Part shown: piece by piece, positions 14,531-60,037 of the stretch
Layout: every line of letters starts with the position of its first letter
How positions within the stretch are numbered: position 1 is the stretch's first letter
From: a virus
Virus record (IMG/VR): IMGVR_UViG_3300028591_000144
DNA: 64,000 nucleotides
Reading direction: 5' to 3' (one strand)
The notes under the pieces: generated by a model
What the model was told of the DNA's origin: nothing
Databases searched by the model: none
The model's input: the letters and a program-made list of their open reading frames with translations, nothing else
Made by a program: the position numbers and the translations under genes

Positions 14531-14863
14531 TTAGAAATCCCATTTCATTTGTGGCGTGTCGTAAAATTCCAACGTCTTTTCGTCGCTTTCTATTAAGTAT
14601 CTTGCCTAAATTAAGTCTTCTTTTGCCCTCTTGAAAGTACTATCACTTATGCCGCATTCCTTCTGGATACGAGCTGGAGACATATCCTCTTCATACCCAT
14701 CTTGATTACTCGCAAAGTATAACCATAATTTAATGCCCCTATCTGATAGCCCACTCTAAAACAATTCTTTAATAGCTTCTACTGTTATTACTGTATAAGG
14801 ATTATCCGTACCAACTTTTCGTTTATGTATTTTAATATGTTTTTGATTAGGATATTTCGGCAC
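14531..14863 (-). CDS. Replication-initiator / replisome-organiser-like winged-helix protein (about 110 aa) with 2 in-frame TAG codons read as sense
   Basis: The minus-strand translation IKLWLYFASNQDGYEEDMSPARIQKECGISDSTFKRAKEDLI(Q)ARYLIESDEK is continuous only if TAG is decoded. RBS AGGTGA plus a GTG start. Lies directly beside the iterons. Confidence 0.5.
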
Positions 14864-14868
14864 TTAAA

Positions 14869-15048
14869 TCACCTGTCTTTCTAACAGACAAGTTCTTCAA
14901 ACACTTTCCTAAATTCGTCCGTATTCTCAAACAACCAACAATTATACTAAGGATATTGCGGATTCGGTGCAACTTTATCAAAAATAAATCCACGTTCCAT
15001 TAATAGCTCTGTTAATTTTTTAGAATACACAATTTGATATTTGCTCAT
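14869..15048 (-). CDS. Small minus-strand protein (59 aa, 2 in-frame TAGs). Either upstream partner of 14531..14863 or its frameshifted N-terminus.
   Basis: RBS GAGGT 9 nt upstream of the ATG (minus strand). Ends 6 nt before the GTG of the next ORF, in a different frame. Confidence 0.35.
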
Positions 15049-15087
15049 ATGTTTGTGTACCTCATCATAGTTTGTTATTTGTGACTC

Positions 15088-15140
15088 CATTTTACAAAAA
15101 AATTTGACTTTTGTCAAAAAAAATTATATAATAAATATAA
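15088..15140. promoter_or_regulatory. Divergent promoter pair sharing the palindromic -35 TTGACTTTTGTCAA. The plus side is a class-2 promoter; the minus side is TTGACA-17-TAAAAT.
   Basis: Plus strand: TTGACTTTTGTCAAAAAAAATTATATAATAAATAT. Minus strand: TTGACAAAAGTCAAATTTTTTTGTAAAAT. Confidence 0.6.
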
Positions 15141-15161
15141 GGATAATAAGGAGTGAAATAT

Positions 15162-15929
15162 ATGAAATTTTGTTTATCCTCAAGATAGACACCAGAATAT
15201 CTTAAACAAGCCGATTAGATTAAAGTAGCTTCACGAGATTATAAATAGATATATGATTTAATAGAAGAGTATCCAGATAAAGAAATTATTCTTAACTATT
15301 AGAATTTAACTGAAGATACTTTAAAAGAATTTAAAACTTTAAGTAAAGGAAATTTAACTCTATGCCTTTTCTCAATTGAGGACTTGCCGATTACCAAAAA
15401 ATTAGAAATTCCTTTCTATTTTTCATTACCAGTTACTACATTAGATTAGTTAAAAGCTGTTAAAAATTTGGGAGTGCGCTATGCCCTTTTAGATAATACT
15501 GTAGTACATCAACTTCATTATGCTAAAATGATTGGCGTTCCATTAAGATTAATTCCTAATTTGGCACACCTTGATGGTATACCAAGAGAAGATGGAGTAT
15601 GCGGTAATTGGTTTCGTCCTGAAAATGTAGATGATTATGATATCTATATAGATACTATCGAATTTGGGTTACAACCTGAACGTAGAGAATAGACTCTTTT
15701 TCGTCTTTACTCTAAAGATAAACAATGGCCTGGAGATTTAGGACGAATTGTGCAAGATTTAAATTATATTGGAAATAATTTAACGATTGATAATAATTTA
15801 GCTTTACGTCGAATAAATTGTGGATTAAAATGTTCTTATAATAATTGTAAATTATGTTATGATTTATTGAAAGTCAGTGATGCTATTCCAAAATTTGCGG
15901 ATTCAGCAACCAGTCTTATTAAAAAATAA
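15162..15929 (+). CDS. Hypothetical protein (255 aa) with 6 in-frame TAG codons
   Basis: RBS AAGGAG. Open from 15162 to the TAA at 15927-15929 only if TAG is sense. The track fragment 15468..15692 is in the same frame. Confidence 0.55.
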
Positions 15930-15948
15930 TAAATAAAGGAGAAAAATA

Positions 15949-57302: not shown

Positions 57303-57605
57303 ATGGGAATTTATTTATCTAATATGGAGATACCGGAAGATGGTTCTTGCATTCAAATCGTAATCGACGATGATGGTGAAGTATATCCGTCTGTTGAAAA
57401 TTGCATTTATAAAACAGGTTGTATAGCAAAGGCAATTTCAGTCCCACCACATGGGGAGTTGAAAGATGCGAATGCGGTAGAAAGGAATCTATTGAAAATG
57501 CAGCAGGCACAGACTGGGCCGTGCTCTCATGGAGTTAGAAAAAGTCGCGCTGTACTGCGGGATGCTTCCATTATCATCCCATCTGATCTATCTAAAGAGG
57601 AATAA
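57303..57605 (+). CDS. Family E paralogue (MGIYLSNMEIP...PPHGELKDAN...IIIPSDLSKEE)
   Basis: Family motifs. Confidence 0.6.
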   Translation: MGIYLSNMEIPEDGSCIQIVIDDDGEVYPSVENCIYKTGCIAKAISVPPHGELKDANAVERNLLKMQQAQTGPCSHGVRKSRAVLRDASIIIPSDLSKEE

Positions 57606-57744
57606 ACATGACTTATCTGCTTTTTATTGGGCTTGGCTATTTTCTTCAAGCATTGAGTACGAAATATGGAATTCCAATAGACGACACAACATGGATATGT
57701 TTCGCCATTTTAACAACTGGCGAAGTTATTTCGTGGAGGAAAAA

Positions 57745-58047
57745 ATGAGTATTTATATTAAAAATGTCGATATGCCGAAAGGCCGTCCAGTATGTATTGT
57801 CATTGACGCAGCTGGGCAAGCTCGGCGTTATGATTTGGACAATGACAGATACGCAGATGATGAATTGTTTGAAGCCATCTCTATTTCACTGCACGGACGG
57901 CTGATTGATGTGGATGCGTTTATCAAAAAGTGCAAAGAAATGGCTGACAAAGAAGACGGAAATCAACTCGATGTGCTTGTTCTTGTAAAATGGTTTCTTG
58001 AGCAGAATGCTCCAACCATCATCCAGGCAAGCGATGAGGGCGAGTGA
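57745..58047 (+). CDS. Family E paralogue (MSIYIKNVDMP...SLHGRLIDVD...PTIIQASDEGE)
   Basis: The internal ATG with RBS GGAGG is preferred over the track start at 57529. A 46-aa membrane ORF at 57608..57748 precedes it. Confidence 0.6.
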   Translation: MSIYIKNVDMPKGRPVCIVIDAAGQARRYDLDNDRYADDELFEAISISLHGRLIDVDAFIKKCKEMADKEDGNQLDVLVLVKWFLEQNAPTIIQASDEGE

Positions 58048-58319
58048 TGGCAGATCATCTTTGTGTGAAGTGCCTGAGAGAGACTTGCCCGAATGCTGGG
58101 TATGACACAGGCATAACAAAGTGTACTTATTATATCTCATCGAAACCAATCACCAATGCCGATCGAATTAGAAGTATGACTGATGATGAACTAGCTGAGA
58201 AACTTGCTAGTCATGTAAGGTGTGATATGTGCCCAAGATGGCCTATGAAGTGCGAAGAAAAATGCACAAAATACTGGCTTGATTGGCTGAGACAGGAAGC
58301 AAAGGAAAATGAGATATGA
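58044..58319 (+). CDS. Cys-rich protein of the NADRIRSMTDDELA...WLDWLRQE family (paralogue of 34482..34688)
   Basis: Shared motifs. Confidence 0.6.
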   Translation: MMADHLCVKCLRETCPNAGYDTGITKCTYYISSKPITNADRIRSMTDDELAEKLASHVRCDMCPRWPMKCEEKCTKYWLDWLRQEAKENEI

Positions 58320-58816
58320 CTAATAAACAATTGAATATTGCGGAAACAATCACTGATTACATCAGCAGTCAGAAGTGGCTTTCCGAGAGAGATATGCGGA
58401 CATTGGCTCACCTCCGGAATGATGCAGTTTGCGTTGACAGTCCAATAGGAGAATATGAATGTTCAGTAGAAACGAAAAGTAAATGGGAGCCGATATGCGT
58501 TGACATTTGTCTTCGGCACGAAATTCACGAGCTAATCTTCAAGCATAATGTGAGCACCATTGGAAGTTGTTGTGGCCATGGCAGAGAACAAGCATACATT
58601 CAAGTATCTCCTCAGTCTGTGCAAAAAATGCACGAACTTGGGTATGAACCATTGCCAGAAAAAGCAGACGGGCAAGGTAAATGGTGCTTTAAGCCGAAAA
58701 CATACTTTCTTGAACCTGTAAATAAAACTTACAAGTTACCGTGCGATGACCTTGCGAATACTCCTATTCCGAGAAATGATGGGCTATACAACATATTGAC
58801 AGAGGAGGATAAGTGA
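58316..58816 (+). CDS. Hypothetical protein, 166 aa
   Basis: Coupled ORF. Confidence 0.65.
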   Translation: MTNKQLNIAETITDYISSQKWLSERDMRTLAHLRNDAVCVDSPIGEYECSVETKSKWEPICVDICLRHEIHELIFKHNVSTIGSCCGHGREQAYIQVSPQSVQKMHELGYEPLPEKADGQGKWCFKPKTYFLEPVNKTYKLPCDDLANTPIPRNDGLYNILTEEDK

Positions 58817-59049
58817 TGAAACGGATACTGATTGTCCTTTTAATTGTGACTCTACTCTTATGCGGTTGCGATAAAAAGAACTCTGAGGAAATAGAAGAAA
58901 CACAACAAAGATTTACCATTGAGTATAGAGAAAAATCAAGCTCGTTTGACTACTTTATTATAATCCGTGATACAGAAACCGGAAAAGCATATCTGTTTGT
59001 AAAAAGCGGCTATGGAGGAGGGTTGACTCTATTAGAGGAGGATAAGTAA
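58813..59049 (+). CDS. Small putative lipoprotein (lipobox LLLCGC), 78 aa
   Basis: Signal peptide MMKRILIVLLIVTLLLCGC. Confidence 0.5.
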   Translation: MMKRILIVLLIVTLLLCGCDKKNSEEIEETQQRFTIEYREKSSSFDYFIIIRDTETGKAYLFVKSGYGGGLTLLEEDK

Positions 59050-59348
59050 TGGATGAATATATCAAGCGAGAACTGGCATTGAAAGTAAAGATACCACATT
59101 ACAGTGCAAATGGGGTAGAAATTGTAGTAAGCGAAGTAATACCAGTTGGATATATTGAAAAACTCCCCGCTGCTGATGTGCGGCCTGTGGTACATGGGCA
59201 TTGGATATATGAGGAGCCGAATGGTGCGAACAAGTTCAAAGGTGCATATTGGTGCGACCAGTGTCATCAGCCTGAGTTTTATAAAAGAAATTACTGCCCC
59301 AATTGCGGGGCTGATATGCGAGAACAGCCAAAAGAGGAACAAATATGA
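59049..59348 (+). CDS. Zn-ribbon protein of the CPNCGA family (CDQCHQ...YCPNCGADMREQ)
   Basis: Family motif. Confidence 0.6.
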   Translation: MDEYIKRELALKVKIPHYSANGVEIVVSEVIPVGYIEKLPAADVRPVVHGHWIYEEPNGANKFKGAYWCDQCHQPEFYKRNYCPNCGADMREQPKEEQI

Positions 59349-60037
59349 AGAAAATAACAAAGAGTGAACTAAACAAAATTATTGAGAATCATAATCATTG
59401 GTTAAGAAGGGATTGTGATGGCTGGGAATATATGCAGGCCGATTTATCATGGACTGACTTATCATGGGCTAGCTTATAGAGAGTCAATTTATCATGTGCT
59501 GACTTATACCGGGCTGACCTAACACATGCTAATTTATCAGGGGCTAATTTATCAGGGGCTTATTTGGAATTTGCTTGTCTAGCATGGACTAATCTGTTTA
59601 ACGCTAATTTATCTGGTGCCATTTTATCCAAAACCAATATGTTGGAGACTAACCTATCAGGGACTACTTTGTCTGGGGCTAATTTATCAAAAGCTGAAAA
59701 TGTCCCATACATTCCAATTGCCTGCCCAGATACAGGTGCGTTTATCGCATGGAAAAAAGTCAATGACTATATTATAAAACTACAAATCCCCGAAAATGCA
59801 AAACGATGTTCCGCTACAACCAATGAATGCCGCTGTGATAAAGCGCTTGTGCTTGCTATTGAAAATCAAGATGGGACTGACAGCGGCGAGACTACATTAA
59901 TTAATAAGGCTTATGCCCCTTGTGTTTACACCATAGGGGAGATGGTCTATCCTGATAGTTGGGACAGCGACCGTTGGAATGAATGTTCGCATGGTATTCA
60001 CTTCTTTATAAATAGACAAGATGCGGTGAACTGGTGA
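59345..60037 (+). CDS. Pentapeptide-repeat protein (Qnr/MfpA-like DNA-mimic fold predicted), 230 aa, 1 in-frame TAG
   Basis: Tandem A(D/N)LSxAxL pentapeptides (ADLSWTDLSWASL..VNLSCADLYRADLTHANLSGANLSGAYL...ANLSGAILSKTNMLETNLSGTTLSGANLS). Continuous only with TAG decoded. Confidence 0.6.

Follow-up and report, generated by a model that had tools for sequence, protein, structure and literature searches.

A large uncultivated phage in which some genes carry in-frame TAG codons, probably read as glutamine

The DNA analysed in this study is a stretch of 64 kb from the IMG/VR virus record IMGVR_UViG_3300028591_000144 (the whole stretch is hereafter called the window), in which a subset of genes carries the amber codon TAG in frame. 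The window has a G+C content of 33.6%, and its transcription is directed nearly entirely rightward. Recognisable products include a PcfJ-like protein, two exonuclease-like paralogues, a phosphoesterase, a radical-SAM protein, a Bmp/PnrA-like lipoprotein, an RNA ligase, an SPFH/Band-7 protein, a NAGPA-like glycosidase, a homing-endonuclease-like protein, and a vault-like protein of 815 amino acids (aa), and no capsid, portal, terminase, tail, or lysis genes were recognised in the window by Pfam and PHROG domain scans. Relatives were found via the vault-like protein, and they comprised IMG/VR viral contigs of 158, 172, and 176 kb, one contig of 402 kb, and ENA scaffolds from rumen studies; contigs of relatives and of the same genome are denoted by L numbers below. 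Vault-like copies at 62% identity were located on contigs binned with metagenome-assembled genomes (MAGs) of Agathobacter and Acutalibacteraceae. No close relative was present among GenBank phages, where the only matches were those of the vault-like protein (42–45% identity) to uncultured huge phages of 462–735 kb (LR756500, LR756501, and LR756503). Exact-protein look-ups gave nothing near either end of the window and otherwise yielded no more than short contigs from this genome. The 3' end of the window had no exact match in IMG/VR, and JGI metagenomes yielded one 1.6-kb contig without a further tRNA. The window is probably the accessory-gene region of a large uncultivated phage, of ca. 160–175 kb as judged from related contigs, whose host probably belongs to the Clostridia and whose sample type is probably rumen. 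The vault-like protein (37716–40163, plus strand) has major-vault-protein (MVP) shoulder and Vault_3 repeat domains and is kept, free of TAG, at 64–97% identity in all relatives; the SPFH/Band-7 gene (42594–43571) lies near it.

A first-pass annotation of the sequence had listed at least 14 open reading frames (ORFs) that are continuous only if TAG is translated, and had stated that none of them contains an in-frame TAA or TGA. Translation confirmed both statements: all 14 ORFs contained in-frame TAG (32 in total), internal TAA and TGA were absent (0 and 0), and every ORF ended in TAA or TGA. The number of TAGs in 17830–18600 was five, not four as had been annotated. Thus, ca. 14 of the ca. 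107 genes in the window (ca. 13%) carry in-frame TAG. The ORFs are as follows.

14531–14863, minus strand: winged-helix, replication-initiator-like gene; two TAGs; matches to PHROG 678/186/270 are weak
14869–15048, minus strand: small gene; two TAGs
15162–15929, plus strand: 255-codon ORF with no assigned function; six TAGs and no CAG; probability of no TAA/TGA, 2e-11
17830–18600, plus strand: gene for a secreted NAGPA-like phosphodiester glycosidase; five TAGs; Pfam NAGPA at residues 81–252
20177–20371, plus strand: small ORF; one TAG; start overlapping the preceding gene's stop
26460–26780 and 26780–27037, plus strand: two abutting small ORFs; two TAGs and one TAG, respectively; in a tightly packed operon with TAG-free neighbours
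30086–30283, plus strand: small ORF; one TAG; 4-nt overlap with the upstream gene
31076–31291, plus strand: small ORF; one TAG, conserved in the L002 orthologue (49% identity)
41629–42549, plus strand: homing/HNH-type endonuclease-like gene; five TAGs; zinc-ribbon repeats and a DUF2726 nuclease domain; PHROG 374/559/9084 at residues 4–299
43792–44649, plus strand: gene for a Cys/Ser/Asn-rich repeat protein; three TAGs; probability of no TAA/TGA, 1e-12
47005–47187, plus strand: small zinc-ribbon-like ORF; one TAG; 4-nt overlap with the next gene
52234–52536, plus strand: ORF with an ATT start; one TAG at 52339, conserved in the L007 orthologue (70% identity)
59345–60037, plus strand: gene for a pentapeptide-repeat and DUF5758 protein; one TAG inside the repeat array; identical in the independent contig L008

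An additional TAG-bearing ORF beyond these 14 was found at 12007–12291 on the minus strand. The short TAG ORFs fit the operon layout, their starts and stops abutting or overlapping those of the neighbours by 1–4 nt. In 52234–52536, no canonical start exists 5' of the TAG, and the ATT that follows an AGGAG ribosome-binding site is the sole possible start there; the segment 5' of the TAG is conserved in L007, the TAG included, at 70% identity.

Whether these frames are translated was judged from open-frame probability and from continuity of homology; a 40-codon coding-potential test across the stops was underpowered because the TAG genes fit the training codon usage poorly. With a background rate of TAA plus TGA of 0.092 per codon in off-frames, the probability of encountering neither codon ranged from 2e-11 to 1.5e-13 in the four long ORFs (255–306 codons) and from 3e-3 to 3e-5 in the short ones. 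The first-pass annotation had suggested comparing gene prediction under codes 15 and 11, and the coverage of the window by a greedy, non-overlapping, codon-usage-scored gene model rose from 62.4% with code 11 to 68.7% with code 15, an increase concentrated at 15–45 kb, and was 60.5% with code 4; the summed codon scores were 4482, 4676, and 4298 for codes 11, 15, and 4, respectively. Naive ORF coverage is uninformative in this respect, since the removal of any stop raises it. The gain under code 15 is modest because only ca. 13% of the genes carry TAG.

The read-through peptides had been described as coherent in the NAGPA-like C-terminus and in the zinc-finger and nuclease regions, and domain matches indeed ran across the TAGs: the Pfam NAGPA match in the 17830 product crosses three TAGs, the PHROG endonuclease profiles cover the 41629 product across all five TAGs, and the Pfam Pentapeptide and DUF5758 matches in the 59345 product extend across its TAG. 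Contigs L005 and L008 (ENA ERZ27256846) and L006 (Logan SRR8436538) were identical over TAG-bearing genes. Since these identical assemblies are independent, the TAGs are not sequencing errors. The TAGs thus coincide with neither frameshifts nor sequencing errors, and coding density rises under code 15, contrary to the two outcomes that the first-pass annotation had named as counter-evidence. Among orthologues at 41–70% protein identity, TAG was kept at the same position in five genes. When stops located at least 12 residues inside protein alignments between relatives and window genes were counted over eight lineages, 41 TAG, no TAA, and no TGA were found in the relatives; the reciprocal test on the window gave 18 TAG, together with three TAA and three TGA, all of which lay within two over-extended N-termini of gene models. 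TAG in these genes is, thus, a sense codon that is in frame and under purifying selection.

The amino acid inserted at TAG was addressed by comparing the residues that homologues have at the TAG positions. The six TAGs of 15162–15929 face CAA, TAG, CAA, AAT, CAG, and CAA in the orthologue of L002/L003/L004 (61% identity), so that four of the five non-TAG codons are glutamine codons. At a near-invariant glutamine of NAGPA ('AWQ'; column 'AW@LF', @ being the TAG position), the window and L002 both have TAG, and L001, whose NAGPA gene translates under code 11, has CAA. The public protein P0001 equals the 17830 product with Q at all five TAGs. Among 120 homologues of the endonuclease family, Q ranked first at three of the five TAG columns and, behind E, second at another, and homologues sourced from NCBI have Q in 'TN@KFGRL'. 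The L002 orthologues of the 14531–15048 gene pair (56–58% identity) have A, N, and Q opposite TAGs. Since some Qs in databases may themselves be the product of code-15 translation, most weight was given to a codon-verified set of 58 residues opposite TAG, pooled in both directions, de-duplicated by lineage, and limited to real genes. In this set, Gln gave the best fit, its ln-likelihood margin being 10.5 against Lys, 11.4 against Arg, and 12.5 against Glu. These alignments indicate that TAG most likely encodes glutamine (genetic code 15), in line with the first-pass annotation, and the Gln-type tRNA(CUA) genes of relatives described below agree with this assignment.

TAG is nearly abandoned as a terminator in the window. 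All 105 modelled genes end with TAA (81) or TGA (24), and five TAGs are located at or near gene ends, three of which have a TAA within the next one or two codons.

5864–5872, plus strand: gene 5495 closes with TAG TTA TAA; the terminal TAG is backed up by a TAA
35100–35105, plus strand: gene 34809 closes with the tandem TAG TAA; its TAG is stop-like
40161–40169, plus strand: the vault-like gene 37716–40163 closes with TAG GGT TAA; L014, 97% identical, has TAA GGT TAA there

The TAG at 40161 is in a genuine stop position, backed up by a TAA, and those at 5864 and 35100 look alike. The other two are the TAGs at 34026 (+3 codons) and 29779 (+21 codons, near the natural C-terminus seen in orthologues). 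Because a TAA follows closely behind the terminal TAG, read-through is harmless and adds at most a few residues. The earlier statement that the early genes end with TAA or TGA and that the TAG at 5864 is the sole TAG stop, backed by TAA, was therefore right about the backup, but the TAGs at 35100, 40161, 34026, and 29779 are stop-like as well.

The beginning of the window is free of genes with internal TAG.

1–10400, plus strand: 15 genes forming a TAG-free block, served by a separate promoter family (CTCTTGACA-N17-TGNTATAAT), with intergenic repeats of 110–131 nt

Not one of the 2321 codons of this block is an internal TAG, and nearly all of its genes end with TAA. Its promoters, which are confined to the first 10 kb, consist of a perfect TTGACA-17-TGnTATAAT within repeats of 75–131 nt (CTCTTGACAAnnn...TGTGCTATAAT). 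Downstream, TAG-bearing and TAG-free genes abut or overlap in shared operons (26142/26460/26780/27034, 29838/30086, and 47005/47184). Likewise, no copy of the promoter family termed class A occurs between 40218 and the endonuclease gene at 41629, which is thus probably co-transcribed with the TAG-free RNA ligase gene, as far as promoter positions indicate. The sites of the promoter family of the first 10 kb (4.5–9.9 kb) are 6082, 8492, 8603, 9564, 9683, and 9827, and 4587, 5956, 8364, and 9396. Class A is a 40-nt element (TTGATTTTTTAAAAAAAATATGATATAATATTTATAGAAA) with ca. 30 copies at 10.9–62.3 kb (e.g. 16547, 21046, 40218, 49688, and 62279). The two families probably mark two transcription classes; since both resemble promoters of host sigma-70, timing is not readable from them.

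At the level of single genes, the dichotomy was sharp. The 14 TAG genes have 31 internal TAGs versus five CAGs, and the other genes have 181 CAGs and no internal TAG (G = 157.7, 61 degrees of freedom). TAG genes also avoid AAG, TTG, and CTG, have a lower codon-usage score (0.21 versus 0.32 log-likelihood ratio per codon), and have their TAGs leaning to the 5' side (mean relative position 0.39, z = -2.2). In relatives, TAG genes contain 136 TAG, 63 CAG, and 185 CAA, and TAG-free genes contain 474 CAG and 326 CAA. The genes for the vault-like protein and RNA ligase are TAG-free in every lineage. The tail and tail-fibre genes of relatives carry 4–6 TAGs (4–9 when RuvC-like genes are taken together with them), and further TAG-rich genes of relatives are those of a RuvC-like resolvase, an intein-containing radical-SAM protein, and HNH endonucleases (up to 14 TAGs). 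These genes agree with the published enrichment of recoding in late genes and a homing endonuclease.

From these results, we consider it highly probable that the phage uses code 15 (UAG = Gln) in a subset of its genes via a suppressor encoded outside the window. The decoder of UAG would be a phage-encoded derivative of tRNA-Gln with the anticodon CUA, charged by the glutaminyl-tRNA synthetase (GlnRS) of the host and competing with host release factor 1 (RF1). We infer that the suppressor would lie in the part of the genome beyond the window, that the host would use the standard code, and that TAG would provide temporal gating; this last component is considerably less certain than the recoding itself. 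Genes free of TAG (the 1–10.4 kb cassettes and those for the vault-like protein, RNA ligase, and SPFH protein) would be translatable in a naive host, and TAG genes (those for the homing endonuclease, secreted glycosidase, and Cys-rich repeat protein, and in relatives the tail, tail-fibre, and RuvC genes) would yield complete products only with suppressor activity. TAG may thereby act as a translational gate set gene by gene, not as a property of contiguous modules.

Evidence on the decoder comes from relatives. In L015/L016/L024, the vault-like protein of which is 80% identical, two tRNA(CUA) genes are present in a cluster that also holds tRNA-Gln(UUG) and tRNA-Gln(CUG). Each of the two tRNA(CUA) genes shares its acceptor stem with one of the Gln isoacceptors, and all four end with U72-G73-CCA. 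A weak 1:72 pair and G73 are identity features for Gln in recognition by E. coli GlnRS. The Gln-like acceptor stems and U72-G73 therefore suggest a Gln-charged amber suppressor as the mechanism of this family. In a survey of TAG-recoded genomes, suppressor tRNAs were detected in only ca. 40%, and genes of the release factor 2 (RF2) or aminoacyl-tRNA synthetase (aaRS) type that accompany code changes were present in only some recoded clades (Borges et al., 10.1101/2021.08.26.457843). Because of this low frequency, a suppressor tRNA is a supportive feature and not an obligatory one.

Several observations weigh against this reading. Neither ARAGORN nor Rfam at gathering and E-value thresholds (1–60 kb and 59.9–64 kb) detected a tRNA(CUA) in the window, in line with the first-pass annotation, and BLAST of the suppressor tRNAs of relatives against the window gave no match. 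The window also lacks a tRNA-Gln, and no release-factor or aaRS domain was present among the 13 largest standard-code ORFs (154–815 aa) scanned. The earlier presumption that the suppressor is encoded elsewhere, thus, stands as to its absence from the window, and its presence elsewhere is made plausible by the two Gln-type tRNA(CUA) genes of the related phage. Regarding the amino acid, several residues aligned with TAG are K, R, or E and not Q, and the assignment of Gln is made from alignments. The sole hint on the host is the binning of relatives with MAGs of Clostridia. As for timing, the putative replication-initiator-like gene beside the iterons described below carries TAG, and TAG-free blocks as long as that of 1–10.4 kb exist elsewhere (21 of 88, notably 31.4–41.5 kb and 47.2–58.8 kb; P = 0.20 for 1–10.4 kb in a gene shuffle). 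The first-pass annotation had held that TAG is a sense codon in middle and late genes but not in early ones. This view is retained to the extent that the 1–10.4 kb block is TAG-free and has its own promoters, but the shuffle probability and the shared operons do not favour it, and, since no structural or lysis genes were recognised in the window, 'late' serves here as a mere label.

Of the other explanations, one in which UAG is read by an unusual tRNA from the array of the window itself, namely the family of 61043–61117 with UUA wobble or the insert-bearing or tRNA-like genes, survives best, although it is unlikely. Rfam matches in the window comprise 12 tRNAs (10 at gathering score), a transfer-messenger RNA (tmRNA), and a ROOL RNA, and the tRNA genes concerned are as follows.

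60103–63973, plus strand: tRNA array of Ile-UAU, Asn, Leu-UAG, Leu-AAG, Tyr with an insert, Ile-GAU, a UCA tRNA-like gene, Ala, and Phe; no tRNA(CUA) and no tRNA-Gln
61043–61117, plus strand: atypical AT-rich tRNA with anticodon GUA; short variable arm; A1:A72 and U6:U67 mismatches; U73; no encoded CCA

The tRNA at 60901 was confirmed as Leu(UAG), which reads CUA and not the amber codon, as had been annotated. The tRNA at 61043 was called Tyr(GUA) by ARAGORN, and its orthologues in L007 (6791–6863) and L009 (939–1011) differ mainly at position 34 and have the ochre-type anticodon UUA, which can wobble-pair with UAG; the UUA orthologue scores 53 bits in Rfam. L007 and L009 also use in-frame TAG, and no tRNA(CUA) was seen in their loci of 18.5 and 3.4 kb, respectively. 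The low detection rate of suppressors in recoded genomes cited above also leaves room for another decoder. However, the copy in the window has G34 and would read UAY, not UAG; it has the two acceptor-stem mismatches and U73. A UUA anticodon would, moreover, suppress UAA, the terminator of 81 of the 105 genes, and no in-frame TAA occurs in any relative. Another relative has the canonical Gln-type CUA tRNAs, and the two tRNAs with inserts were identified as Tyr(GUA) and, probably, Arg. In IMG/VR searches, neither the 61043-type tRNA nor a 56-aa protein encoded in the tRNA array had a match.

Both insert-bearing tRNAs were missed by ARAGORN. One, at 61425–61561 (plus strand), is a tRNA-Tyr(GUA) with a 53-nt structured insert in the anticodon loop, and its L007 orthologue (7159–7243) lacks the insert. 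The other, at 56428–56574 (plus strand), is a probable Arg tRNA with an anticodon-loop insert of ca. 74 nt, and its L007 orthologue (4406–4544) has a different insert in the same place. The inserts are too short for group I introns; an RNA ligase gene is located at 40278–41531. A weak tRNA-like gene (30 bits) with the anticodon UCA, of the opal-suppressor type, lies at 61786–61856 (plus strand), is conserved in L007 (8250–8321), L009 (2678–2748), and L010 (1639–1709), and is preceded by a strong promoter and a conserved leader (GATACAGCAA); yet no in-frame TGA was found. Opal recoding, which this gene brought into consideration, was rejected: 24 genes terminate with TGA, in many cases within an ATGA overlap, and the alignments contain no internal TGA.

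A somewhat smaller chance is left to the explanation that TAG is a sense codon but specifies another residue, such as Lys, Glu, Tyr, Trp, or pyrrolysine (Pyl), the label that ARAGORN gives to CUA tRNAs. K, R, and E are frequent opposite TAG, and Y is opposite one TAG in the paralogue pair 14869–15048 versus 12007–12291. Rumen communities include organisms that decode Pyl. Nevertheless, the codon-verified set favours Gln over Lys, Arg, and Glu by the margins given above, and four of the five non-TAG codons orthologous to the TAGs of the six-TAG gene are CAA or CAG. The CUA tRNAs of relatives have Gln-like acceptor stems with G73 and no features of Pyl-tRNA, and no pyl genes were seen in the window. 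Glutamine thus remains the preferred assignment.

It is less likely again, if only slightly, that no code switch occurs, UAG already being a sense codon in the host, so that the TAG usage of the phage would mirror that of the host without a regulatory role. The mixture of TAG and TAG-free genes in operons would be in keeping with neutral codon choice. Against this, TAG use is all-or-none per gene, unlike the spread of a synonymous codon; the largest and most conserved genes lack TAG in every lineage, relatives encode their own CUA tRNAs, and the candidate hosts are Clostridia. Finally, it is extremely unlikely that the TAG ORFs are decaying pseudogenes in which untranslated amber codons arose from CAG by C-to-T mutation in dispensable genes: although the TAG genes are mostly poorly conserved accessory genes with weaker codon-usage scores and nearly without CAG, such decay predicts TAA, from the commoner CAA, at least as often as TAG, and none was seen (32 TAG/0/0 in the window and 41/0/0 in relatives), which excludes this reading, and the genes show no frameshifts, have intact domains, and keep their TAG positions at 41–70% identity, with TAG present also in the tail genes of relatives.

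A stronger form of the recoding by a suppressor outside the window can be proposed tentatively, and we regard it as doubtful. Amber recoding may, instead of belonging to an early or late module, be an all-or-none switch that is set gene by gene within shared operons, with ca. 86% of CAG replaced in the 14 genes and none in the other ca. 93, so that one suppressor would gate, at translation, a scattered regulon comprising selfish endonucleases, a secreted glycosidase, and, in relatives, tail genes, and TAA-backed terminal TAGs would be tolerated. More speculatively, the decoder in some members of the lineage might be the atypical tRNA family that varies between UUA and GUA, and not a tRNA(CUA).

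It is well documented that phages of hosts with the standard code can recode TAG to Gln, and published work covers suppressor tRNAs, standard-code early genes, recoded late genes, and proteomic validation (10.1101/2021.08.26.457843, PMC9523058, PMC6784885, PMC10607447, PMC10879173). The window shares with the code-15 gut phages of Borges et al. (10.1101/2021.08.26.457843; Nat Microbiol 2022) a low G+C content, TAG in a gene subset, rarity of TAG as a terminator, and a predicted Firmicute host, as well as a Gln-type tRNA(CUA) and recoded tail genes, here in relatives, and a recoded endonuclease, theirs being an intron endonuclease. Unlike those phages, the window has no suppressor tRNA, RF2, aaRS, structural, or lysis genes, and its recoded accessory genes are interleaved with standard-code genes in operons. 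With the Lak megaphages (Devoto et al. 2019, PMC6784885), it has in common code 15 with TAG-using and TAG-free regions, many tRNAs, multiple kinds of predicted suppressor tRNAs, and large expressed intergenic regions, and the 'enigmatic introns' in Lak tRNAs, including tRNA-Tyr(GTA), resemble the insert-bearing tRNAs described above. Lak phages, however, have genomes of ca. 540 kb, infect Prevotella, and encode RF2, whereas the lineage of the window is ca. 160–175 kb and probably infects Clostridia, and no sequence relationship was found between them. In crAss-like phages (Peters et al. 2022, PMC9523058), TAG also means Gln in the phage while the host uses the standard code (the host code being inferred here); they differ in having Bacteroidota hosts, genomes of ca. 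100 kb, and peptide validation. The gut phage phAss-1 of the proposed Phassvirus (PMC10607447), of ca. 136 kb, likewise has TAG in 41 ORFs, suppressor tRNAs, no dedicated aaRS, and predicted Clostridia hosts; its recoded genes include those for TerL, portal, and tape-measure proteins, and it showed no similarity to the window in the GenBank phage collection.

The recoding phenomenon is, thus, already known, and the established view of phage stop-codon recoding is unchanged; the window adds to it a large-phage lineage that comes from rumen-type samples and probably infects Clostridia. For annotation, ca. 14 genes of the window break into fragments under code 11. Public calls are inconsistent even for contigs of the same genome (L026 3435–3758 and 5001–6080 versus L005 7333–8100 and 10001–10771). 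One contig was called with code 15, which yields full-length proteins with Q, and another with code 11; on the code-11 contig, the endonuclease is a 107-aa fragment and the Cys-rich protein is in pieces of 45 and 36 aa. The near mutual exclusion of TAG and CAG per gene, together with the interleaving, can be used to test protein-level against module-level gating.

Between the territories of the two promoter families, ca. 16 copies of a palindromic iteron (GTAACATTTTGTTAC) form a field of 600 bp (11104–11700). It is flanked by paralogous leftward gene pairs (11733–12291 and 14531–15048), each consisting of a gene for a protein of ca. 60–90 aa followed by that for a winged-helix, replication-initiator-like protein, and the region of 10.4–15.1 kb is otherwise nearly gene-free. 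This arrangement suggests that the iteron field is probably an origin of replication.

Other structured RNAs were also found in the window. The ROOL RNA (62393–63012, plus strand; 274 bits in Rfam) has a class A promoter at 62279 and is conserved in L001, L007, and L008. The phage-encoded tmRNA (55784–56125, plus strand; 127 bits in Rfam) is also present in L007, and the tag peptide given by ARAGORN (VNTLCLDRITQKRL) is atypical and may be mispredicted. Between a class A promoter and the tmRNA lies a GC-richer, ORF-free stretch of 1.3 kb (54496–55783, plus strand). In this stretch, the units 54812–54991 and 55263–55371 each have a tRNA-Leu-like 5' half of the acceptor and D-arm (AACTGYGTGGCGGAATAGGTARACGC) and a 3' half of the T-arm and acceptor, ca. 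120 and 49 nt apart, respectively. The halves at 54.8–55.4 kb gave no tRNA hit, and the stretch matched no Rfam family; it may represent a structured RNA not described before or a group of tRNA-like genes that are split or interrupted. At 22183–23213 (plus strand), four class A promoters are located within 1 kb, together with short ORF-free transcripts, strong hairpins, a GC-rich segment of ca. 270 nt, and a tRNA-Lys(CUU), and, judging from this organisation, the region probably encodes several small RNAs of unknown kind.

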